64,000 nucleotides of DNA from a virus (IMGVR_UViG_3300031555_003117:1-64000); one strand, 5' to 3'; positions 28,392 to 42,233 are shown, counted from the stretch's first letter. Numbers and translations are program-made. Notes: a model not told the origin generated them from the letters alone.

Positions 28392-28493
28392 CGTTATCTT
28401 TAGTTGGTTAGCTACACCAACTGGATTGTTAATCCCACATAGTTTCCTATGTGACGAGACTATATCTTCTACACTAAAAATAACAGTATGATA

Positions 28494-28521
28494 TTGACAT
28501 AACAATAAATCTACATATAAT
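28494..28521 (+). promoter_or_regulatory. sigmaA-type promoter inside intron 3 (peptide mRNA)
   Basis: TTGACA-16 bp-TATAAT. Confidence 0.75.
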
Positions 28522-28687
28522 AAAGATGTGGAAACCACCGTCAGGTCAGGGTTCTTTTCGTATCGTTTTCTGCCTTGGCGGTTGATGGTAAAAGGGCGGT
28601 TGCCTCCTAATTCGACACTCGCGTGAGCTGAAAGGAGGTGCAATGTGCGGCTCCCGACGAGAATACTTTTTCGGAGGTGAATTGCGC

Positions 28688-28822
28688 ATGAAAGCTATTT
28701 CATTTATGGGAGACCTTTGTGGCATCTTAGGATTTATCCTAACGATTCTATTCCGTGTAATAGACTCTTTTAAATGGAAAGCGAGCCGTCTCGCTACAGA
28801 CGACTCGCTTAGGGGTATCTGA
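28688..28822 (+). CDS. Putative type I toxin, 44 aa membrane peptide MKAISFMGDLCGILGFILTILFRVIDSFKWKASRLATDDSLRGI (in-frame upstream ATG at 28643 gives 59 aa)
   Basis: RBS GGAGGTG; one hydrophobic helix then basic residues; convergent antisense promoter; below the ORF-track size cut-off. Confidence 0.65.
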   Translation: MKAISFMGDLCGILGFILTILFRVIDSFKWKASRLATDDSLRGI

Positions 28823-28885
28823 GGTCGTAAGCCTCAATGCCTTTGTATAAGCCTGTTTCTCGTGGCGACCGTCTAGGTTTCCACA
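28775..28885 (-). ncRNA. Putative antisense antitoxin RNA (about 110 nt, ends approximate)
   Basis: Minus-strand promoter at 28891-28919; terminator-like 12 bp hairpin at 28779-28810; overlaps 3' part of peptide ORF. Confidence 0.55.
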
Positions 28886-28890
28886 TCTTT

Positions 28891-28919
28891 ATTATATATA
28901 GCATTTTTTATCGTGTCAA
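28891..28919 (-). promoter_or_regulatory. sigmaA-type promoter inside intron 3 (antisense RNA)
   Basis: TTGACA-17 bp-TATAAT on minus strand. Confidence 0.75.
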
Positions 28920-29173
28920 GATACATTTTGAGTATATTTTAGGTAGTCTACCTTTTCGAATCGCCAATCGCTTGCGATCCTACTCCCTTGCGGGATAGTC
29001 GTTGAACGTTCCCCTGTTCAGGGCTTCGCTGCTGATTGCCCAATCCTTACGTTTTTCAAACCATCGCACTTCGGTTTATTTCATCCGTATGCTGTGGTTG
29101 TAAGGCTCTAAGGGGTTTCCAGCAATTAAATAGAATACCCCTATTCGTTACCGAATAGAGGGGCAATTTGTTT

Positions 29174-29775
29174 ACCATTCTGTATAAGAGTCTATAAGTT
29201 CAGCGGTTTCCTCGTCATATTCCTTGATGTCGATTGTACCGTCATGAACCTTCTTTTTCAGTTCGTCAGACAGGCCAACAGAATTTGCTTCCTGCATATA
29301 GCGCTCAAAACCAGCCTCTTGAATTGCCAATTCTTCACGCATCTTGCGCATCTGTTCTGTTGCCGCTTCAAGTCTCTTGGGAAGCGGCTTAAAAATGCTG
29401 GCAAATGCATTTGCAGCCTTTTCAACCAGACGCTGAATGCGACTGATAGCAACTTCGATCCAGTCTTTGATGGAAGGATCGGATTCTTCATCGGAAGAGC
29501 TACTGGAAGAACCTTTGTTTGAGGAACTACTACCTGATGGTTTAGTCGTTACCTGACCACCGATGATAACCGACCCATTAGCCGTGCCACCATACTCAGT
29601 ATTGGACGCAAAAGCCGTACCCTCAGCAAGTGCTTTTCCTCTCGGCGTAATGCCTGAGATTTTACCATTTTTCAGCAATTGCTCTGTCTGCTTATGGTTA
29701 AAGATTATGTCGCCCTTCTTGTATTGGAAGAATTCTGCGCCATAATCGCCGATGGTGAAGTATTTGCCGTTACGT
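29174..29775 (-). CDS. Tape measure protein exon 3
   Basis: Joins exon 2 as GTG GT|A CGT AAC GGC (V-V-R-N-G-K-Y-F), in frame with ORF 29172..29678. Confidence 0.85.
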
Positions 29776-31355
29776 CAAATATGTTTCGCTGGTTCGCTAC
29801 GCCAGCGAGGAATAAAACCTCTCATGCTTTCACATGAGTTCAGACTATATCTTTGTGTAAATGATGATTGATGATTGTTTCTATATTGTTGTATTCCCAG
29901 TATGGGAAACGAATTAATTCGATTTTGTGCTTATGACAGTAGTTTGTTTTAATTTGATCATGCGCCTGTATGTATGAGAGAGTATTACCGAATTTGCCCT
30001 TGTCCATGAAGTGTTGCTCGCCATCAAATTCAATGCACATATTCTGGCTGGGAAGATAAAAATCAAACGGAAGTGGCCTTATATCCCTACAATCCTGAAA
30101 TATCTTTTCCTGCACATAGGGTATATTCATGTTCATAAGATGATTACGTATCTTTCTTTCGCCATTACTTTCTATATGAGAACACTCAGGGCATACTTGG
30201 CCTCCATGCTGTACAAACAAAACCAGCGAGGTAATAAAAACGCCTCCGCATCTGTTACACAGAATACGAAGGTTTTTTCGATATTGATTTATATACTCAC
30301 TCTTATTAAGCAGCAACCCGCCTAACTGTGTAATTCTATTCTCCACTTCATCAATAGACAGACTGAACTGTTTTGAAGCTTTATCCTTTGCACAACCGGG
30401 ACATCCTTTTCCGATTTTGAAATTTGAAACCCTCATACGTTGTTTGCCGTGAATAGGGCATAAGTAAGTAATATAGTCAGTATTCCTTTTGATCTCTGAT
30501 AGATCACCGATAATCTCATAGCCTTTTTGATCGGCTACTGACATAATCCCATCTATATGCGCTTCTTGCCTGTCGCGTAGTGTTGAATTTGCCTTTGCAT
30601 TACCAGCCGCAGTCCGACCACACGCATAGCACGCCTTTCCTTGAAGAATATTGGTTACTTTAGTACGCTGCTTGCCATGTTTAGGACAAATATAGTATAT
30701 ATCACTTTGAACATTGGCAATATCACTTTCATTAGAAATAAGCACATACTCATTTTTGTCGCACCATTCTTGGATCTTTGAATAATGTGATAGGCGTCGG
30801 CGAAGAATAGTTGCTTCATTGATTTTTTCGCCAGAACATTTTTGACATGCTATCTTTTGCTTATTTCTTTCTACAACACGATAAGCTTGATATGGTTTGG
30901 AAAACGAAGCTCCGCAATAATCGCATATTACCTGTACATGCACATTGGACTTATCCATTAAATCTTCTGGATGAACAATAAACTTCTCTCTATACTTTGT
31001 AAATTGATAACCTTTAGATTCAAAATGATTTCTGTTCTTCGGATTCCAACTTACTTCTATTTCTTGATTTTCAACTAAAATATTGATTCACCACTTATTG
31101 AATGTATTTCAATCATTCATTTACACATCTACCTTTTCGGATCGCCTATCGCTTGCGATCCTACTCCCTTGCGGGATAGTCGTTGAACGTTCCCCTGTTC
31201 GGGGCTTCGCTGCTGATTGCCCAATCCATTCGTTTTCAAGCATTTACGTTCAGGCTTATTTCATCCTCACGCTGTAGCCGAATGGCTCTAAGGGTTTTCC
31301 AGCAATTAAATAGATTATTTGTTCTGCTTGTTGCCAAACAGTGTGGCATCGTAAT
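29776..31355 (-). ncRNA. Group I intron (TMP intron 2), 1580 nt, with homing endonuclease in P8
   Basis: Canonical core elements; P1 GUGGU/GCCAC with U-G wobble; AAGATATAGTCT; frame restored. Confidence 0.93.
29840..30958 (-). CDS. Intron-encoded homing endonuclease: Zn-ribbon repeats plus PD-(D/E)XK/Vsr-like nuclease (frame open upstream to 31081)
   Basis: CxxC/CPxHG repeats; LPFDFYLP...IEFDGEQH motif; stop codon embedded in the P7 3' strand. Confidence 0.8.
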   Translation of the reverse strand: MDKSNVHVQVICDYCGASFSKPYQAYRVVERNKQKIACQKCSGEKINEATILRRRLSHYSKIQEWCDKNEYVLISNESDIANVQSDIYYICPKHGKQRTKVTNILQGKACYACGRTAAGNAKANSTLRDRQEAHIDGIMSVADQKGYEIIGDLSEIKRNTDYITYLCPIHGKQRMRVSNFKIGKGCPGCAKDKASKQFSLSIDEVENRITQLGGLLLNKSEYINQYRKNLRILCNRCGGVFITSLVLFVQHGGQVCPECSHIESNGERKIRNHLMNMNIPYVQEKIFQDCRDIRPLPFDFYLPSQNMCIEFDGEQHFMDKGKFGNTLSYIQAHDQIKTNYCHKHKIELIRFPYWEYNNIETIINHHLHKDIV

Positions 31356-34300
31356 ACCACGATTTCGCGCCCCAACTCACCACCGAGAGCAGTTCCAGAA
31401 CGCTTAGTACTCCAATCGCCTTGTGCATATGCAGTGCCACTTGCATACGGGCCGACACCGGGAGTGGGACTGCCAGAAGTATTGGTACTTGTAGTGGTCT
31501 TATTAACGGTTTTATATACGTTTGTCCAAGTAACAGTACCACTTGCTTTAAACTCCGTCTTGACCTGGGTTTCATCGTTTTTATTCCAGAATACTGTGCC
31601 AAATGCACGCTTGCGTATTCCTTCATATCTGACGATTGCTTTGGCGTCGTTGCTCCATTTTACAATGCCAGTAGCGGTATGATCTGCATTCAGGTATTCA
31701 TCAACCAACGTAGAATCAACGCCAGCTTGAATGAGCATTTCAGGAGTGACTTCTTTAAGCTGTGCATTTAATTCTTCTGTAGATGCCGTTGGATCAATAC
31801 CAAGTTTTGCAGCAATTGCCCGTTCCTCACTGCTGAAAGAAGCAATAATTGTATTGATTTCAGTTTCAAGCTGTTTTGTATCTGCTCCAAGGGAAGCCTT
31901 GAGCTGCATGTCGTTATGGCTATTTCTCAGGCGTTCAAGCTTGCGCAGTGTTTCACCAACCGTTCCGTCAATATCGCCCAAATCAATATTGAAAATGGTT
32001 GGGGTTTCCAGCGCTTGCTTTTGCAGTATCAACGCAGAGAGGACATATTGCGCTTCTTTTGCACCTTCAGCCTCGATGTCAATATTTCCGTCTTCATCTC
32101 TGAATTCATCAAGCGCCTTTTCAGCTTCTTTGATCTGTTCTTCAACACGCGCTACATTGGTAGTATCAAAATTGAATTGATAATCTGTTGCGCCCATAGA
32201 GTTCAGTGCTTTTGCTGCTTTATCGGCCTTTGTGGTGATTGTGTCGAGATCACCATACTTCATATCAAGCTCTACATCGAAACCATAGTCCGAGAGCTTG
32301 CGCATGATGATTTCAACGGCTTCCGCGCTGATTCCAAGTTCTTTGGCTACTTCTGAGAAATCATCAATATTGATGTCCCAAGAATTGTCTTCATTTAGCG
32401 TCGCCCAACCCTTTCCAAGTTTCTCAACATCGTTAAGGAAGTGCAATACGCCGTCTGAGCTATCTTTGAAGTACCGCTGCATCTTGGGGTAGGATTCCTC
32501 GTATATGGATACAAGGTCAGCGGATGAAGCACCACTCAGGTCTTCATCGGTCATGAGTTGAACAGCGGATCTGAACTTATTGGTTCCGATCAAACCATCT
32601 TCATATAAACCCTTTATGTCTTCAAGGCCACCCGTGATGCCATCATACATGTCGCCTTCTTCGCCCATACTCTGTGCCTGTTCCCATTTACGGTAAGCGG
32701 AAGTCAGGCCGTCGTACTGTGAAATCAGGTCGGCTGTATCGTTAATCTGTGCAGCAATTTTGTCGCGCTGTGCATATAGATCAACCGTGCTTGCAGTATT
32801 ACCGGCAGCATTAATCTGTTTTGTAAGGTCTTCATACTGCGCAATCAGTTCATCCATCTTATCGGATGTTTTCTGCTTTGTGAATTTCTCGTACTCACTT
32901 TCCAGTTCGCGCAGTGCCTTGGTATTCAGATGAATGCCGTGCTGGGTGCGTTCAAACAGGTTTGTAGTATCAACACCCGATAGGGAAGCATACCGCTTTT
33001 TCAGGTTTTCTATGGATTCAGCAGCCAAGCCCGTTGAAGAAACGGATTCCTTGATTGCAGTGAACAGGTTGTCCATACCTTCTGCCTCGGCATTGATGTC
33101 AATGGCAAACTGAGTTTCACCAACGACTTTGCCAACAGCAAGAACAACTTCCATGAAGTCTTCAAGCTCTTTGCGGTCTTCTTCGGAATCGCATTTACCG
33201 AATTGCTCATTGAAGGCTGCAATTACATCTGCGTCCATGGAGCCTAGAAGATCAATAATTGCACCTTCTAAATCCTCGCTCTTGCCTTTGAGTTCGGGGA
33301 ATTCGTCCATGAGCTTGTACATGTCGATGGGTTCAAGGCCATCTTCCTGTACCTTTTTGAGCGCGTCTTGCAGGGTTTGTGCGTCTGCGATGTAATTGTC
33401 AATAGCTGTGTCAAAAGTATTTTCCTCAACTTCAATCGCAAACGACTCTTTTATACTGTCTGCGTATTCCTGAGTAATAGTTTTTGCCTCTGCCAGCTTA
33501 TCAATATAGGAGTTTACCCAAGTTGTTAGGAAATCAGATTCGTAAGTAATGGAGCCATCATCGCCAAAGGTGAAGAAATCCTCCAGCGAATAACCTTCGC
33601 CTAGTACATCTAAAAGACTAATCGCCTTTTCCAGAGCTTCATTAAATGTGAAGTTACCGCTATTTAGGAAATCTAAGTAGTTGGACACATTGGACACTCG
33701 ATCAAGCGCATTAGACATCGCATCTAGTTCATCTACGGTGTCACTGAAACCCATATTCAACGCCGCGTCAAGTGTAATCGCCTGTTCAACGGTAAGGTCG
33801 CCGGCTCCATCTTTGAACTCGTTCAAAGCATTTACGTATGCTGTTTTTACGGCATCTGTATCAATGATAATCTTGCCATCAATTACTTTGTACATACCCT
33901 TGACAGTCTCTTCGTCAAAGGTATTCATCAATTCCAGAAGAGTTTCAACGGAATTGCTTCCGTTCTCAACAAGTTCTTCCTGAACCTTGCTTACAAAATC
34001 AGAAGCGTCGCCTATTCCTTCCATGGCTTCGGCAAAACTGTGGAATGTCAGAGGGGCTTCTTCGGAAAATCCAACTATGCTGCGAAGCGTTTCCAAATAT
34101 GTTTCTAGTGCAGCAATGTTTTCTTCGGTGAGCTCCATGTCCTCTGCCATTTTGCCCACATATCCGAAAAGATTATCATAACTTGATTCGGAATACCAAC
34201 CTTCAAGGCCAACAATTTCCCGTCGTGCCCGTTCAATTGCCTTCTCATAACTGCCAGTTTCAGCAAGCAATTGATTTAGATCTGCTTCTAGCAACCTGTC

Positions 34301-35995
34301 AAGATCAAAAAAGTCCTTGTCATCAAAGTTACCGGATTTAATCTTTTCAAGCGCATCATCAAGCTTCTCAATATCTTCAAGATAGCCATTGATTGTGTCT
34401 GAAACGTCATCGTCTCTTTCTGGATCATTGAAGAATATCTCGTCAAAGGATTTGCCTTTGTATTCAGAATCTCTTTCTAGTTCTTCGTAGAACCCATCGT
34501 ATCTTTCGTACTGCTTCAAGAGATCATCTACTGCTTGGCCTACTTCAATTCCGTAAGTAACAAAGTCACCCGAACTTAAAAACTTGCCGCTAGAGATTAC
34601 AGCTTCTCTGATGGCATTATTAAATTCTCGGAATTCCTCGGTTGTTTCAGGTAAACCTTGCTCATTTACAACTTTATTGAAAGCAGAATGTACTGCCGTA
34701 GCATTCGCTTCGTCAATCAGCCCTTGTAAGGTCGTATATTCATCTTCGAGCTCTTCAATTTTATCGCCAATATGTTGAAATATGTTGCTTGCAAACAGCT
34801 CATCTTCATCATAAAGACCTGAACCTAAGCCTTCGATTAAATCATCACGCAACTCAATCAGGTATTCGTAAGCTTTAACCGCATCGTCTGACGTTTTAAT
34901 TTCTCCGAGTTCGATAACACCACGGCCAAGTATACCATCAGTAGTGCCAACTTTGTGTCCAGCTTCGCGTAAGTATTCAACAAACGGCGCATCTTCCTTG
35001 CCATATCTTACAGCATCAAATCTAAAAAAGCCGTCTCCTGCGGCTTTAAGAAGTTCTTCTTTAGCACCTTGAATGCCAGAAACTATGTTTGCGTATTCGG
35101 TATCGAGCGCCTTCTGGGTAGCCTCGTCTATTGTTCCATTAAGAGCATCATAATCATCAATTAGCTTTTTGATCTCGGCATCTTCAAAGCCTAAAGCCGC
35201 GAGAAGAGCTTCTGTAGCCGAAGTGAAACTTTCTTTTGAACCAGTACCCGACTCATAAGCCAATTTTGCATCATCATATGACGAATAGAGATCGCGAATA
35301 CTAGACGCTTCTTCCTTGGCCGCTTCAGCGGTTTCAATAGCTTCATTGCGAAGCTCTTTTTCGTGGTTAATAAGCGAACTAATTCCAGAAACAATAGCAG
35401 TTACGGCAAACGAAATGGCAAGGGTCTTAAGAGTAGAAATGACCGCATTTGCAGTAGCAGTTGCTGCCGACAAAGCAACCGTAGCAGTTTTTGATTTAAC
35501 TAAATATCCAATATAACCCTTGAATGAAGCTTTTGCTCCATTTAAGCTTGTAAGATATTGTCCTAAAACATTGTTGCCATTACCGACCGAATTTATATAT
35601 TCCGAAGTTTCTAAACCGGTAGCCGATATCCCATTATTATATCCGTCGATCAAAGAGCGAATGCTTTTAAAAGACTTTCCTGCGGCTAAAGTTGATACCT
35701 GCAATTCTCTTTGCTGTTTTGAAAAACTATCAACTTTTATACTTAATGGATCAACAAGTTTTGCATACTCTTTGGCTGCAATGCTTGCACCATCCATTGC
35801 TTTTGCCAAAGCTACTTCTTTGGGAATATGTGCTTTAACAAGTACACCGTAGCGCCTTAGTGCTTTTTCGTCTACTTCAAGTTGTTTTGAAAAATCAGCC
35901 CCATAACCGAATTTTTCAACAGAGAATAGCCCCTTAATAGAATCCGATATTGCTATTTTACTTTTTCCAAGCTCGTCCTGGACAATTTTGAATAT
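31356..35995 (-). CDS. Tape measure protein exon 2
   Basis: Long acidic helical ORF; joins exon 1 as GGT|ATA TTC (K-N-V-G-I-F-K); ends in TALGGELGREIV. Confidence 0.85.
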
Positions 35996-36035
35996 CAATA
36001 CTGTAAATATAAAAGCGATGCTTGAAGTCGCTTCA

Positions 36036-36063
36036 TTGACATTGCTCGAAAAATAAGTATAAT
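36036..36063 (+). promoter_or_regulatory. sigmaA-type promoter for plus-strand cargo genes
   Basis: TTGACA-16 bp-TATAAT followed by AGGAGG RBS and ATG 36099. Confidence 0.75.
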
Positions 36064-36098
36064 TAACATAACATTATTACACAATTAGGAGGATTGAA

Positions 36099-36569
36099 AT
36101 GGGATATATCTACTATTGTCCTGTATGCGGATGCGATCAATTTAGAGATGCAGCCAAATGTACGCATTGCTATAATCCAGTACGACCCGTACAGTCTAGA
36201 TATGAATACGAATACTATCAAAGAAAAGCTTTTATGCAATACGGTAGTTCTTCGGAATGGAAACGTGTATTGCAGGAAGAAGAGGTCAAATATCATCCTC
36301 TTTATAACGGAAGAACAGCCTCTCAAAGAAAGACTACCCAAGAAATTGAGCAACATAATAAAGAGATTTTAGACAACTTAGCCTCTAAACAATTAGAACA
36401 GCTTAAGTATTCTGCTTCTACCAACCAACCCAAATGCCCCACATGCAATTCCGCCAACATTCAACGCATTTCCACTCTCAAACGTGCTACACATGGCTAC
36501 CTATTCGGCATTTTCAGTAACACTGCAAGATCTCAGTTTGAATGCCTTAACTGTAAGTATAAGTGGTGA
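36099..36569 (+). CDS. Cargo: double zinc-ribbon protein
   Basis: CPVCG/CTHC N-terminal and CPTCNS...CLNCKYKW C-terminal Cys pairs; RBS AGGAGG. Confidence 0.8.
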   Translation: MGYIYYCPVCGCDQFRDAAKCTHCYNPVRPVQSRYEYEYYQRKAFMQYGSSSEWKRVLQEEEVKYHPLYNGRTASQRKTTQEIEQHNKEILDNLASKQLEQLKYSASTNQPKCPTCNSANIQRISTLKRATHGYLFGIFSNTARSQFECLNCKYKW

Positions 36570-36607
36570 GTGATTCTGATCCGTCGAAGTAAGGAAGGCG
36601 GTTACAA

Positions 36608-37174
36608 ATGAGCAGAGGATCTAGGGGTGGCGATTTCCCAATATGGGCATCCGTTGGGCTTTTAATATGTTCATTCGTGTGTCCATTTCTGGTAATTCTA
36701 CTGCTTTTCTTATCCTATAAGCCAAGCCAAAGCGCTAGGGATCGTATCTCGTTAATGCAAGGCATACTCGTTATCGGCGGCGCGATCCTTGCCGCAATTC
36801 TCTGCCCGATAATTGTAATCGTCGGTTGTGCAGTCGATGGCATTTCATACACGTTTAGTGAATATGGTTTTGCTTTTGCGGTTGTAATCATGGATATACA
36901 TCTGGCATTACATCTCTGGCACAAACGTATTGCCGCAAGAAATACATCGGTGCTTGGCGAGGATGAAACAACTTCCATAGATAATCCTCTCTATAAGCAA
37001 CCAAATCAGTCTGTTACGCAAGAGAAAAGAGAACAGGGTTGTTCATTTACTCTATTGGTGTTCGCTTACTTAGGTGTTGTATGCTTCTGCTTTTTCAATG
37101 AGAGCATAAACGATTTCTTCACTGCGCTTATTTTTGGATATGGGATGGCATACCTGTTAAAGCATTACTTCTGA
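36608..37174 (+). CDS. Cargo: multi-pass membrane protein
   Basis: About five hydrophobic segments; RBS AAGGAAGG. Confidence 0.7.
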   Translation: MSRGSRGGDFPIWASVGLLICSFVCPFLVILLLFLSYKPSQSARDRISLMQGILVIGGAILAAILCPIIVIVGCAVDGISYTFSEYGFAFAVVIMDIHLALHLWHKRIAARNTSVLGEDETTSIDNPLYKQPNQSVTQEKREQGCSFTLLVFAYLGVVCFCFFNESINDFFTALIFGYGMAYLLKHYF

Positions 37175-37209
37175 ACAACGACACTGCAAATATGAGTTTT
37201 GGACACAAG

Positions 37210-37240
37210 AAAAGAGAGTCAGTTTGTCTGACTCTCTATT
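37210..37240. terminator. Bidirectional terminator between convergent cargo genes
   Basis: AGAGAGTCAG-TTTGT-CTGACTCTCT 10 bp stem with A/T tracts on both sides. Confidence 0.8.
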
Positions 37241-37357
37241 TAAGGTCAAAACCTTTAAATCCTCTAAGAGAATTCACCTTGTCTCTCCGGTGCGAGCGCG
37301 ATATCCTACCGAATATCTAATAGCGTTTTGACCTTTTAAATCTATTGCATAGTCTGT

Positions 37358-38077
37358 TCATTGCTTGCAAATATAATGCTTTTTGCGCTTTTTAATTTCC
37401 CTCTGTAAATTCTCCCAAAGGCAATTATCAACCTTACTAAACTTCTTTGAAGACCGCGAAGGTTTGATCTCAGATTCGTCAATATCTTCTGTAGTTGTCG
37501 GCCAGATTTCTAGATGTTTTACTTTACGAACATCAAATACAAAGCATCTATCTGGATCTTCACAGATATATGTAGGCTCGTTTGTCTCAAGGTTATAAAA
37601 AGCATAATATTTCAATGACATATGTGGATCATTGGGATCATTGCTATAACCAGCAACCGCACCTTTGATATAATAAGGTAATCCGTCTATATGAACAATT
37701 GCCACACTGCCGTATCCACCAAGCGTGATTGTACCCGCTAATACGGTTGGCGTAGACGAAAAATGGAACACTTTAAGTAATACAGATTCAACTCGTTTGC
37801 TCTGTGCCAACAAGGAAAATATTACTGAACCAATAATCGCAAATACGCATGCGGAAATTGCTTTCCATGCGTAATTCTTAATCAGCTCTTCGGGCAATAC
37901 AATTCCAGATATGGCTACTACAATATAACTTATCACGCACGATATCCACAATGTATTTGCACCATTTGATTTTGTACTTGTGAACAAACGATATACTGAT
38001 ATTGCAATATATCCAGGAATAAAGTATATCAACAAGTCTGGTATCTTAGTTACGTCAAATCCACTAATATAAATCAC
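37358..38077 (-). CDS. Cargo: membrane protein, DUF6338-like
   Basis: YFIPGYIAI and further N-terminal TM helices with a soluble C-terminal domain; GTG start overlaps upstream TGA. Confidence 0.7.
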   Translation of the reverse strand: MIYISGFDVTKIPDLLIYFIPGYIAISVYRLFTSTKSNGANTLWISCVISYIVVAISGIVLPEELIKNYAWKAISACVFAIIGSVIFSLLAQSKRVESVLLKVFHFSSTPTVLAGTITLGGYGSVAIVHIDGLPYYIKGAVAGYSNDPNDPHMSLKYYAFYNLETNEPTYICEDPDRCFVFDVRKVKHLEIWPTTTEDIDESEIKPSRSSKKFSKVDNCLWENLQREIKKRKKHYICKQ

Positions 38078-38229
38078 TTCCCACTCTTCTCTTTGGAACT
38101 CTGTGCCTGCTGCTTACTCCCATGTGAAATTTTTGAAGTTGTTGCTCCATTCCAACTAAAATTCTCATGAGTTACTTTTTTGTCGGGCTCATTCGTATTC
38201 CGAACATTTGCGTTGTTTTTATCAGCCAT
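38074..38229 (-). CDS. Cargo: 51 aa hydrophilic peptide coupled to DUF6338-like gene
   Basis: MADKNNANVRNTNEPDKK...KSGK; RBS AGGTGGTG; TGA overlaps next GTG. Confidence 0.55.
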   Translation of the reverse strand: MADKNNANVRNTNEPDKKVTHENFSWNGATTSKISHGSKQQAQSSKEKSGK

Positions 38230-38262
38230 AATGCACCACCTATTAATCATGTTGTCAATATA

Positions 38263-38291
38263 ATAACACTTTGATAAATAGGTGTCAACGC
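38263..38291 (-). promoter_or_regulatory. sigmaA-type promoter for minus-strand cargo genes
   Basis: TTGACA-17 bp-TATTAT with extended TG. Confidence 0.6.
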
Positions 38292-38721
38292 ATATGCATC
38301 AAGCTACCACTGTTTGACCATCCAAGCTCATGGCAGGGGAGGGTAGCCCCACTATTTTCTATACGCCAGTTAGCCCACTGGTTTGGTTTTTACCCCGGCA
38401 TTTGCTGCTGCCGGGTACAGTTTGCAACATACAATCACGATTTTCACCGCGCAGGTTTATGTCCTCTGAACCCACCCAATCTCGCATTTGGGCGATGGCT
38501 GCTGATAGCTTCATGCGCTATTATATGCAGCTTTACGCATGAAACGTCCCAGTCTATCGGCATAAGAACCATTACTTATGCCAGTTTATCCTGTTTTCCC
38601 TAGCCCCTCTTGGCTACGCAGCGAGTCTTCGCGCAACCTCGTTCATGTTACCATTAGTAAAGGCTTCGTGGGCATATTCAACTCGTAGTATAATCCGAAA
38701 TTGGAACTGATTAATTAGTTC

Positions 38722-41136
38722 ACCCACGTTTTTCAGTGAGAGTGCAGCAGTTATTGCACCAATAAGCGTAGGTATAGTACCTATCTTTTCAATAACGCCG
38801 TCAAATACTGAAAGTATGCCGGTTCCGGCATCAACAAGTCCCTTTAAAAAGTCAGCCTCAAGAACCGTATTGGAAAGAGACTGCCATGCAGTGGTCAGCT
38901 TATTAAGCTTACCCTGTAGTGAATCTACATATGAAGCATTTTCCTTTGCCGCAGATCCCGTAGCATTGGTTGCAGCTCTCATTGCTGCTTCTACCTGCTC
39001 CCAGTTATTGATCATTGCAGCTACATCACTGGCACGGTTCTTACCAGCAATCATTTCAAGTACATTGGATTGAACGTTTCCACTGAGAGAATCCCAAACA
39101 TTGGCAAGGTCATCCATTACTTCATAAGTAGATCGAAGTTCGCCAAGAGAATCAACCAGGCTTACACCTGTCAAATCCTTCATGGCAGAATTCATCTTAG
39201 AAGTAACTTCAATCAACCCTTCAGCATCTTCGCCAATTGCAGTAAGTTCTTCTGCCGTAGTGCCGCGTAAACGCATTGAAAGCGTTCTAAGTGCGTTACC
39301 TGCTCTGCTGGCATTCTGAGTTACTTCAATCATACCCGTTGCCATTGCTGAAGATTGCTGAATACTATTACCAGCAACTTCAAGCGCAGAAGCACTATTC
39401 TTCAAGGCTGCGCCAACATCGGAGGCTTCTACGGCAAATTTGTTTCCGAGTTCATTAAAGATGTCGGCAACATATTCTACCGCCTTGGTTACATCGCCGT
39501 CTTTAAGTTGAAGTAGCTGATCTTGGAATCCCTTATATGCGGTCACTAGATCATCAACTGCAGCACCGTGTTCAAGGTCAGTAACATGCTGATACATCGA
39601 AGTGACATTAGCAAGCTTTTGTGCATCGTATGCATTAAAACCAAGCTTTGCCCAATCAGCAGTTGAATTGATAATATCGGTCAGTTCCGCACCGTATTCT
39701 TTGGCCGAAGAAGTCATTCTCTTGTAGAGATTCTTATATCCTTCGTCCGTTAGGTTTGTAACGCGGTACAAACCCGTCATTGCAGTGTCAACAGCCAAAA
39801 CGTTTTGAGCCATCTGTTCAAATACTTCTTTTAATTGGCTCAAAATCGTTGCTACACTGACATATCTTAAAATACTCCCGAACGCCTTGGTCATCTGTGA
39901 TCCAAGGGTTTGCCCGGTTTTGCCTAACCTTTCTGCTTCGATCTTAGTTTGTTCAAATGCTCTTCTGACATTCTCAAACTCTGCACGAGTTAGGCTTCCG
40001 CTTGCATTCAACGTACTTAGTCTTGAACGCAAAGCATCAATACTTGAGCCGAATTGCCCAGCCGCCTTTGTATTCTTTTGAAGCCAGCTAGACATTTCAT
40101 TATCAAGCTTGCCTACTTCGATTATACCTACACTTTGCCTATCCTCAGTCTTAATTGTTGAAAGAGTGCTTTTGACTCTGGTAAGTACAGTTTCAAACTC
40201 ACGGTAAGATGCAATCAAGTTGTCAGCATCTATATCTGGCTCCTGCATTGTAGCACTCAGAGTGCGCAATTTCTCCAAATCGTTTGCAACGGTCAATAGA
40301 CTATGATGCCCCGTGCTGCCAAGCTGCTGATATTGCGTGGTGACTTTTGCAATGTCAGTTTCAAGACCAACACCACGTTTACCCCCTGCTGCAATAACAG
40401 AAAGCGTATCCTTAACCCTTTTAAGAACAATCTCAAATTCATTATAGGACTGCGCTAATGTATCCGCATCTATATCTGGGCTCTTAATAGTTGAGCTCAA
40501 ATTCCGCAGCGCTTCCAAGTCGCTCTTGACCATCGATAGACTGCGATGCCCTGAATTACTGAAATCCTGGTACTTTGCAGTTACACTTTCGATGCTCTTG
40601 TCAAGATTTATACCGCGTTTTCCCTCTGCAGAAATGGTAGTCAGCGTATTCCTAACCCGCGCAAGCGTGTTTTCAAATCTTTGATAGGATTGTATAAGCG
40701 CACCTGCGTCAATATCGGGCGTTTTCATTGTGTCGCTTAAACTTCGTAGCTTCTGCAAATCGTCCGCAACAATTGAAAGACTATGATGCCCCGTGCTGCC
40801 AAGCTGCTGATATTGCGTGGTGACTTTTGCAATCGAACTATCTATTTTGCTAAAGTCGAGCGAATCTGCAAGCCTATTGTTGATTCCCCTTGAAAAACTC
40901 TGTCCAGAATTTTTAAAAGCGGCGTCAAACTGTTTTTCGAGACCTGAAAAATTAACGTTGTCAAATGTGATTTTAAATTTATGTTTATCAAGCTCAGACT
41001 GAATCTCAGAAACAAATCCCTTGGTATTAAGTGAAATATTGCTCAACTTAATTGGCGTTTTGCCTATGCCAGCAACTTGCTCTGGGATTTTTGACGTGTC
41101 TAAAATCGCTTGTATTCTAGCTGTATATTCAGACAT
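38722..41136 (-). CDS. Tape measure protein exon 1 (805 codons; TP901-type core)
   Basis: VDTAMTGLYRVT, ADWAKLGF, ASRAGNALRTLSMRLRG motifs; three 80 aa tandem repeats. Confidence 0.9.
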
Positions 41137-41183: not shown

Positions 41184-42233
41184 TTACAATTCTTCTAGTG
41201 AAGTTTGTTTAGTTTTCTTGATGCCTTCTGCACCAAAATATTTTTCAAACTGCTTATCCGCCTCTGTATCAATATATACTTTCAGCATATCCGCAGACTC
41301 CCATCCGATCATTTCCTGAATTATATTATCAGGAATGCCGTATTCATGTAATTTGGTAGTTAGATGATGTCTCATACTGTGCCAGTAGAATGGTCTTCCG
41401 AGGATCTGCCCGAAACTTCTTGCCCATGAATCCAACGTTGTAGTTGGGATTGGTTCATCAAGCCATTGTCCAGCATAGTATTTAGGAAATAACCAATCGG
41501 TGTTGATTTTTAGTTCTTTCCTCTGTGCCATCCAGAGATCAAGGTAGGGCTTAAATGGTTTGGCAAGTGTATAGATATCTAATAGCTTGCCTCGCGATCC
41601 ACGCCCTTTAGTTGTTACCTTTTCGGGTGTCTTATATAAGGCACCCTCACAAATTAGATTATCCTTATCAAAATAACTAACCTTAAATCTGGGAAGTTCC
41701 GCCTTGCGCCTTCCATTATTAATTGCAAGTGCAAGCATGCAAGCTTTCATATATTCCTTGTTTTCAACCAAGATATCCAGCAGTTTTTGCAAATCATCTT
41801 CAGTAAACACACTTTTTTCTCGCACTGCAATATCTGCTGGAGACTCAATTTTACGCACAATTGGTTTATAATCCTCAAATTCATCGTCGAGTATATTTTC
41901 TACGTAGTTGCTCAACGATGAAATGGTGGCCTTTACTGTACGAATACGCTTAGGAGACCATTTCCATACGTTGATAGCATGACTCTGAAACTTAGCGATC
42001 TCGCGTTTAGTTAAGTCTACAAAATGTTTATTCTTATTGAATTCTAAGTTCCAACACCAAAAAATATGCAAATTAGCCTTATATTGAAATATCGTCCCCT
42101 TTGAACGATCAATCGATGAAAGATAGTCAAGGAAGCCTTCTTCTAAGTCAATGTTATCGGGGTTTACTTGAGCCATCTTTTCATCGGAAGTAATAGTGTT
42201 ATAAACAGTTTTTCGTCCATCATTTTTACTCAT
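41184..42233 (-). CDS. Second tyrosine recombinase embedded in tail operon (SPbeta YomM-like position)
   Basis: NGRRKAE and WHSMRH...IGW....Y motifs. Confidence 0.85.
   Translation of the reverse strand: MSKNDGRKTVYNTITSDEKMAQVNPDNIDLEEGFLDYLSSIDRSKGTIFQYKANLHIFWCWNLEFNKNKHFVDLTKREIAKFQSHAINVWKWSPKRIRTVKATISSLSNYVENILDDEFEDYKPIVRKIESPADIAVREKSVFTEDDLQKLLDILVENKEYMKACMLALAINNGRRKAELPRFKVSYFDKDNLICEGALYKTPEKVTTKGRGSRGKLLDIYTLAKPFKPYLDLWMAQRKELKINTDWLFPKYYAGQWLDEPIPTTTLDSWARSFGQILGRPFYWHSMRHHLTTKLHEYGIPDNIIQEMIGWESADMLKVYIDTEADKQFEKYFGAEGIKKTKQTSLEEL

Follow-up and report, generated by a model that had tools for sequence, protein, structure and literature searches.

The gene for the tape measure protein in the virus record IMGVR_UViG_3300031555_003117 is interrupted by 2726 nucleotides (nt; 38721-35996, minus strand) that most probably form a functional, cis-splicing group I intron, a reading drawn from the sequence and from its comparison with related loci. 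The stretch analysed here (the window) covers 64,000 nt of a 74 kb IMG/VR virus record, which is estimated to be about half complete, and the phage appears to be an SPbeta-like gut phage. The first ~430 nt of the intron would hold the ribozyme, in which helix P1 would pair GUGGGU of exon 1 with GCCCAC of an internal guide and place a U.G wobble at the splice site. The last ~40 nt would act as a 3' module made up of a hairpin, the P9.0 strand UACAGU and the terminal G, and the 2.3 kb in between would be cargo. Three pairings could bridge this cargo, namely a kissing contact of two loops (GCUUG/CAAGC), P9.0 (ACUGUA/UACAGU) and P10 (UUGAAUAU/AUAUUCAA). Splicing would join KNVG to IFK and thus give one continuous tape measure protein. 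The interrupted gene is laid out as follows.

38722..41136, minus strand: tape measure exon 1, 805 codons, with a PhageMin_Tail domain
35996..38721, minus strand: predicted group I intron, 2726 nt, inserted between codons
From 35995, minus strand: tape measure exon 2, within a 1580-codon open reading frame (ORF; 35998-31256, first codon TTG at 35998)
38722..38727, minus strand: P1 exon strand GUGGGU, whose last U makes the U.G wobble at the 5' splice site
38668..38679, minus strand: internal guide GAAUAUGCCCAC, consisting of GAAUAU (P10 strand) and GCCCAC (P1 strand)
35988..35995, minus strand: P10 exon strand AUAUUCAA, the first 8 nt of exon 2
38293..38721, minus strand: putative ribozyme, ~430 nt of non-coding sequence with P1 extension hairpins, P2, a P3-P8 core and a P9 domain

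Exon 1 ends in ...AAC GUG GGU at 38722, the terminal base of the intron is G (35996) and exon 2 begins with AUA UUC AAA at 35995. Both junctions fall between codons; the predicted spliced RNA reads AACGUGGGU joined to AUAUUCAAA, and the predicted product reads KNVG/IFK. A first-pass annotation of the window had proposed a break after GUGGGU (38727-38722), a resumption at AUAUUC (35995), a terminal G and a restored frame, and all of these were confirmed from the letters and coordinates of the sequence. In the unspliced form the frame of exon 1 continues for 35 codons into the intron up to a UAG (38616-38614), which gives an ORF of 840 codons (41136-38614). The apparent stop of the 1580-codon ORF (31256) sits within a second, canonical group I intron.

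The two exons were joined by a script and the product was aligned to tape measure proteins by BLAST. Uninterrupted homologues span residue 805/806 in single alignments (P0037, 392-1122; P0035, 343-1096; P0045, 404-1354; P0034, 258-825). At the junction P0035 reads GKQVGVFK where the spliced protein reads LKNVGIFK, and over a wider stretch PTLIGASTLAFGLFGKQVGVFKSTS of P0035 stands against PTLIGAITAALSLKNVGIFKIVQ. Intron-less homologues, the examination of which had been suggested as a check, were found to be colinear across the KNVG/IFK junction.

The KNVG/IFK site is also occupied by an insert in relatives, which come from SPbeta-like phage contigs. Their common layout is a PhageMin_Tail ORF, 350-550 nt of conserved non-coding sequence, variable genes, a spacer of ~100 nt and a large ORF starting from (N)NG/AUAUUC (IFK). 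Family A comprises the window, L002, L003/L004, L005, L009, L019, L094 and L097. A sister family B, inserted at the same site, consists of L007, L013 and ~65 viral contigs with the P8 loop GUUAUAUGAAACGAUGC.

The 12-nt guide that had been described as complementary to both junctions was borne out, and the P10 pairing is longer than was claimed, reaching 8 bp (UUGAAUAU, 38681-38674, with AUAUUCAA). The guide GAAUAUGCCCAC is the sole match in the 64 kb on both strands, even at one mismatch; by simple arithmetic ~2e-4 exact matches would be expected by chance in 2.7 kb of one strand. In related loci the guide is kept and covaries with both exons. P1 occurs in six exon/guide combinations across relatives:

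Exon end GUGGGU: guide GCCCAC (window, L002, L005) or GCUCAC (L009, L019, L094, L097)
Exon end AUCGGU: guide GCCGAU (L007, L057)
Exon end GUCGGU: guide GCCGAC (L022, L065)
Exon end GUCGGC: guide ACCGAC (L013, L023, L047), with C.A instead of U.G
Exon end GAUGGU: guide GCCAUC (L067)
Exon end UUCGGU: guide GCCGAA (L070)

The U.G at the 5' splice site is swapped only for the same-shaped C.A, in which a C at the exon end goes together with an A in the guide. C.A as the sole substitute fits the wobble pair that is required at a group I 5' splice site. The P10 strand of the guide changes together with exon 2 as well (AUAUUCAA/UUGAAUAU in the window, AUAUUCUC/GAGAAUAU in L007 and AUAUUU/AAAUAU in L067), and the terminal intron G is present in 11 of the 11 loci from which both splice sites were extracted. 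The natural C.A was seen in 5 of the 11 family B representatives; it occurs in L013, L023 and L047 and in many viral contigs.

For the core of family A, seven sequences (alignment A3) were counted on a group I model drawn with the P3/P7 pseudoknot. In the window its main elements are the following.

38593-38590 and 38455-38452, minus strand: P3, CAGG with CCUG, in a pseudoknot with P7
38497..38508, minus strand: Q-like element CUAUCAGCAGCC; the P4 3' strand UCAG (38505-38502) pairs with CUGG (38552-38549), in parallel with AAUCAGCAGC of introns 2 and 3
38455..38470, minus strand: R-like element UUCAGAGGACAUAAAC, with the P7 5' strand GACAUA (38463-38458)
38436..38451, minus strand: P8 hairpin CGCGG-UGAAAA-UCGUG, a helix that covaries in family A
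38424..38436, minus strand: S-like element GAUUGUAUGUUGC, with J8/7 and the P7 3' strand UAUGUU (38431-38426)

It was found that 97.3% of the 620 pair cells of this model are paired, as against 33-38% when the partners are slid. As many as 36 of the 89 pairs change on both sides; shuffles gave 17.9 +/- 2.5, and none of 500 reached 36. The covarying helices are P2, the hairpin after P3, P3 itself (C-G becomes U-A in four of the seven sequences), P5, P6, P8 and four P9 hairpins. Two further introns of the same gene, recognised by the Rfam model RF00028 (intron 2, 31054-31365, minus strand, 66 bits; intron 3, 28436-29183, minus strand, 80 bits), show the elements in the order AAUCAGCAGC-P6-GUUCAACGACUA ... 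AAGAUAUAGUC, and the window intron reads UAUCAGCAGC-P6-GUUCAGAGGACAUA ... UUGUAUGUUGC in parallel. With these two in addition to the window intron, the tape measure gene would have at least four exons. RNAalifold offered other partners for the GUUGC of family A (GCAGC at 38501-38497, and GUAACAUG near 38650), which were dropped in favour of the layout that matches Q, R and S of introns 2 and 3. It was also observed that 7-8 bp can form between GUAACAUG (38650-38643, after the guide) and UAUGUUGC (38431-38424), the P7 3' strand, and that the changes in relatives are wobble-compatible; this may be an alternative fold competing with P7, or chance.

In family B the helices were counted on 11 sequences (alignment A4), and there P4 and P7 covary:

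P3: 98% of cells paired, 3 of 4 pairs changed on both sides
P4: 100% of cells paired, 4 of 6 pairs changed on both sides
P7: 100% of cells paired, 2 of 5 pairs changed on both sides
P8: 100% of cells paired, 6 of 7 pairs changed on both sides

The corresponding elements are P-like AAUAUGCGAGGAAA, Q-like GGUCAGCAGG, R-like UCACAGAAGCGACAAC and S-like AUAAGAUGCGCUC, and the predicted fold has the group I core topology P3-P4-P5-P6-P7-P3'-P8-P7' with the P3/P7 pseudoknot. Related loci, which had been named as a place to look for a conserved or covarying core with variable cargo, showed just this: the core covaries and the cargo differs.

The 3' end of the intron is remote from this core and is made up of a small module, the parts of which have partners at the far side of the cargo.

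38416..38421, minus strand: P9.0 5' strand ACUGUA, directly 3' of P7
36005-36000, minus strand: P9.0 3' strand UACAGU, followed by AUU and the terminal G (35996)
38318..38333, minus strand: last core hairpin; its loop GAGCUUGG (38329-38322) and that of the 3' hairpin are complementary
36013..36033, minus strand: 3' hairpin AAGCGA-CUUCAAGCA-UCGCUU, 15-25 nt before the 3' splice site

P9.0 is complementary in all members of family A, where the last 6-9 intron nt (UACAGU..G, 36005-35996) match ACUGUA, and it covaries between the families, ACAGU/ACUGU in A being replaced at the same place by AGUACG/CGUACU in B ((U)AGUACG with CGUACU(A)). The stem of the 3' hairpin is different in each of seven relatives and its loop CAAGCA is conserved. 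The two loops covary too: UCAAGC/GCUUGA, UCAAAC/GUUUGA (L013), GUUUAAAC/GUUUAAAC (L047), CAAGCAAU/AUUGCUUG (L009) and CAAGCAC/GUGCUUG (L097). A second copy of GCUUGA is present at 38304-38299 (minus strand). The cargo is positioned between the last core hairpin and the 3' hairpin. In a third group of relatives (L011:1230-1320 and L012:5975-6090; the recovered parts of these inserts are downstream of their 5' parts) four tandem hairpins with differing stems and identical loops (CUCCACA or CUUCAAACA) stand just before ATG/ATATTTAAA, and L067 has one hairpin of this type. Such tandem hairpins may be multiple kissing partners.

Inside the insert the window carries the following cargo, with promoters scored by their fit to the sigma-70 consensus.

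38260..38288, minus strand: promoter TTGACA-17-TG-TATTAT, 11/12, extended -10, for the 58-aa and 239-aa genes
38074..38250, minus strand: ORF of 58 aa, hydrophilic, with a stop that overlaps the following ORF's start
37358..38077, minus strand: ORF of 239 aa, with a hydrophobic N-terminal part that is probably membrane-spanning (by eye)
37213..37237, minus strand: intrinsic terminator, 10-bp stem and U tract, on the tape measure strand between convergent cargo genes
36608..37174, plus strand: ORF of 188 aa, hydrophobic, a probable multi-pass membrane protein (by eye)
36099..36569, plus strand: ORF of 156 aa, a double zinc-ribbon protein
36036..36063, plus strand: promoter TTGACA-16-TATAAT, 12/12, sigma-70 type, for the opposite-strand genes

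The insert had been said to hold four ORFs with their own promoters and a terminator, and this holds, with four ORFs, two near-consensus sigma-70 promoters and one strong terminator. The claim that none of them is a homing endonuclease is likewise supported, as the four ORFs have no match to a homing-endonuclease family in Pfam, PHROGs or PADLOC, and endonucleases of the LAGLIDADG, GIY-YIG, HNH, His-Cys and PD-(D/E)xK types were found neither in these four nor in ~25 cargo ORFs of relatives. The 239-aa ORF has no family match and resembles DUF6338 from language-model features only. Insert length in relatives varies from 980 to 5136 nt, the zinc-ribbon gene is the commonest passenger adjoining the 3' splice site, and the content differs from one locus to another:

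L003: without the 188-aa gene
L002, L005: drum RNA (RF02958) and the zinc-ribbon gene
L009, L019, L021, L025: a lipoprotein-like gene
L013, L021, L044, L048, L053, L069: a GmrSD_N/NsnA-like gene, E down to 2e-39 (Pfam/PADLOC matches for L013, L021 and L044; the others by N-terminal resemblance)
L044, L048: an additional NYN/HEC-09-like gene (scanned in L044 only)

Matches to defence families among the cargo of relatives are thus GmrSD_N/NsnA (E 2e-39), PD-T4-2_A and NYN/HEC-09; the window's own four ORFs gave no defence-family match. The insert has what characterises morons and defence hotspots, that is, an own promoter and terminator and variable genes at a fixed site. The cargo could be expressed independently from its own host-type promoters and terminator, presumably in the lysogen, and its content would turn over among relatives around a constant ribozyme and 3' module. 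The drum RNA (72-74 bits), an orphan motif until now, was seen in the tape measure intron at L002:9343-9452 (plus strand) and L005:1470-1579 (minus strand), between the P9 kissing hairpin, which it follows directly, and the reverse zinc-ribbon gene; in L002 a RecU-like gene lies ~5 kb upstream of it. It may be intron cargo or a peripheral domain of the intron.

Several observations weigh against a functional group I intron. A G-C pair in P7 binds guanosine in canonical group I introns, and here the first P7 pair at that position is G.U (GACAUA/UAUGUU); an additional hairpin between P3 and P4 is non-canonical as well. P4 (CUGG/UCAG) and P7 are invariant in family A, so they lie outside the covariation support, and their assignment there rests on invariant bases and consensus resemblance and on the parallel with introns 2 and 3. 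An Infernal search with group I models, which had been proposed as a check, was negative at the window intron: RF00028 gave no match even at E up to 10, and cmscan against Rfam (with E up to 1 for 35000-40000 and up to 10 for 38240-38770) returned chance matches only. RF00028 was blank on family B also (L013, and 20 loci at gathering score, where the sole result was the drum RNA in L002 and L005). Since the model is blind to a core that is supported by covariation, its miss at the window intron is read as a limit of the model. A covariance model of the family B P7-P8 region (R1) found neither the window core nor introns 2 and 3. It should be noted here that the way from the core to the 3' splice site leads through two opposite-strand genes and through the strong terminator at 37237-37213, which lies on the tape measure strand. 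A full-length precursor mRNA would therefore require read-through; a terminator-insensitive polymerase or trans-splicing would be other ways to reconcile the terminator with splicing. Insertions at this place could be neutral for tail assembly, and the internal sense-strand terminator is a real difficulty for this idea. A YonO-like RNA polymerase was absent among the nine window ORFs scanned, which carries little weight in a record that is about half complete.

The G.U in P7 bears on a different drawing of the same intron, in which the P7 3' strand is placed at AUGUC 36041-36037 and the cargo interrupts the core itself, not the P9 region. GACAU/AUGUC would give the canonical G-C pair, and AUGUC is followed by AAU, a hairpin and the terminal G, as in P7-P9 of introns 2 and 3. 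The presence of AUGUC is, however, explained by the cargo promoter, to whose -35 box TTGACA it is complementary. Relatives keep only GUC or UGUC, at a distance of ~2 to ~35 nt from the hairpin and after unconserved sequence, whereas the local GAAUGUAUGUUGCAAACUGUAC is invariant in six of the seven sequences (the window has GAUU for GAAU), with the P9.0 strand directly after it. In family B, moreover, the local P7 is supported by covariation. This placement is unlikely.

The position of the terminator, together with the convergent opposite-strand genes, suggests another possibility, a split intron that acts in trans. The transcript of exon 1 and the ribozyme would end at the terminator (37237-37213), the 3' module and exon 2 would be transcribed separately, and the kiss, P9.0 and P10 would assemble the two; three covarying long-range pairings are what such an assembly needs. 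However, no convincing sense promoter was found upstream of the 3' module, the best one scoring 9/12 and lying within the zinc-ribbon gene, and relatives whose introns measure 980-1130 nt (L009, L019, L002) could hardly house an independent transcription unit. Remote 3' modules also occur in introns that splice in cis, such as T4 sunY, which again counts against splicing in trans. We consider it improbable.

ORF callers predict two proteins at this locus, and it could be argued that two tape measure proteins are made, one of 840 aa ending in the insert and one of 1580 aa starting from TTG 35998, with the RNA serving regulation or processing. NTG directly before IFK in many relatives (ATG in L011 and L012, TTG in the window) would agree with this, as would the missing Rfam intron match. 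On the other hand the codon before IFK is ACG in L002, L013 and L047, which represent three lineages, and a Shine-Dalgarno or ribosome-binding site before exon 2 was not seen, as judged by eye. The protein tails after KNVG are unrelated between the families, covariation of the guide with both exon ends would be left unexplained, and uninterrupted homologues run colinear across the junction. The chance that two separate proteins are the product is small.

The tape measure gene is immediately preceded by a gene for a tyrosine recombinase (41184-42233, minus strand) that has a Phage_integrase domain and a SAM-like N-terminal domain, and the same was seen in L002, L003, L007 and L009, the relatives with the upstream region recovered. 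The insert could be excised at the DNA level, for example by this recombinase (42233-41184), or it could be a decayed, splicing-dead intron, the prophage being defective or dependent on excision. The recombinase gene adjoins the tape measure gene in all relatives examined and the core is non-canonical (G.U in P7, extra hairpin), both of which speak for such a reading. Against this, covariation that preserves structure across many phages points to selection on the RNA, both exons are open and conserved, and recombinase-type repeats were not seen at the ends, which carry RNA pairings instead. Decay or excision is highly improbable. A group II intron was rejected for want of a GUGYG start, an AY end and an Rfam group II match and because of the wobble pair at the splice site, as were a split intein and translational bypass, given the unrelated tails after KNVG and a length of 2.7 kb that is too long for bypass.

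Reading the insert as a group I intron is supported by the covariation of the guide, by a covarying core with differing cargo and by colinear intron-less homologues. The homologues of exon 2 and their contigs come from SPbeta-like phages with YomU, YomV, YomX, RecU and an upstream tyrosine recombinase. Where the exon 1 flanks of phages are ~65% identical, their family B cores still show 98-100% identity, the pattern that a horizontally moving or strongly homogenised element would leave. The window and L003 (L003:7943-10003) share 99.5% identity over exon 1 and the intron as far as nt 1539, beyond which they diverge, and the downstream tape measure half of L003 is only 39% identical to that of the window. 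This would place a recombination breakpoint between tape measure modules inside the cargo, and the intron may serve as a recombination boundary for exchanging tape measure halves. Searches of 50,697 phage records gave no match to the insert by blastn or to exon 2 by tblastn, and a search for related loci with exon 1 in viral contigs returned nothing. Scanned as a pattern, the 19-mer CAGAGGACATAAACCTGCG matched a single true locus (L005) and, by chance, one other (L006), with zero matches in genome contigs.

Group I introns in phage tape measure genes are known. Prophages of the Bacillus cereus group carry introns of subgroups IA1/IA2 in these genes at three sites, IVS1-3 (Tourasse and Kolsto 2008, PMC2504315). 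As in the window, there are several per tape measure gene, the guide is fitted to each site, the introns are near-identical across phages and some are without a complete endonuclease gene (PMC2504315). The parts of that paper on prophages, however, describe no multi-gene, self-promoted cargo (PMC2504315). The B. cereus introns sit in lambda-Ba01-like phages, as against SPbeta-like gut phages here, and the core of the window intron has diverged beyond RF00028. The first-pass annotation had known of no description of the arrangement; the multi-gene, non-endonuclease, variable cargo does look new, but tape measure introns of group I are not, as the sections of PMC2504315 on prophages make clear. 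Our literature searches, which were not exhaustive, found no description of a phage group I intron with several independently promoted non-endonuclease genes.

Introns 2 and 3 share with the window intron the host gene, the strand and the order of Q, P6, R, P8 and S. They differ from it in having a canonical GACUA/UAGUC P7, P7.1/P7.2 hairpins and a compact P3-J3/4-P4; in the window intron P7 contains a G.U, P3 and P4 are separated by a hairpin, and the cargo, which follows the core, is far larger. Intron 3 likewise has an insert, which adds several hundred nt to L8 and gave no endonuclease match. The intron of T4 sunY (nrdD) has its core 5' of the inserted ORF, and its remote 3' splice junction is returned by P9.0 and P10. 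Its insert is a single same-strand ORF of the endonuclease type, whereas here the cargo reaches ~4.7 kb, on both strands, with promoters, a terminator and a covarying kissing-loop tether. To our knowledge the cargo of bacterial group I introns is either no ORF or one endonuclease gene. With morons and defence hotspots the insert has in common a fixed position, variable content and host-type promoters, and relatives carry GmrSD_N/NsnA-like, NYN/HEC-09-like and lipoprotein genes; unlike in these, the site falls within the reading frame of an essential virion gene, and only RNA splicing would make it harmless.

It is plausible, and is put forward here tentatively, that the intron is an endonuclease-free, horizontally mobile cargo platform, in which the tether of kiss, P9.0 and P10 lets DNA of almost any length and orientation insert harmlessly, and that it could, in that case, be a main hotspot of defence and exclusion genes in SPbeta-like gut phages, expressed in lysogens from host-type promoters. 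The tape measure gene of the window would have at least three introns, and many 'split' tape measure genes of gut phages with 'intergenic' accessory genes would be better read as one intron-bearing gene that is missed by the standard model. The 3' splice-site module, detachable and kept in place by a programmable contact between two loops, may be of use in engineering. The identity of an endonuclease-free intron across diverged phages, the passage through the terminator and the drum RNA as a part of such introns are questions raised by these findings. For bacterial group I introns the range of cargo would widen to several kilobases of genes that lie on both strands, are transcribed independently and include candidates for anti-phage defence.

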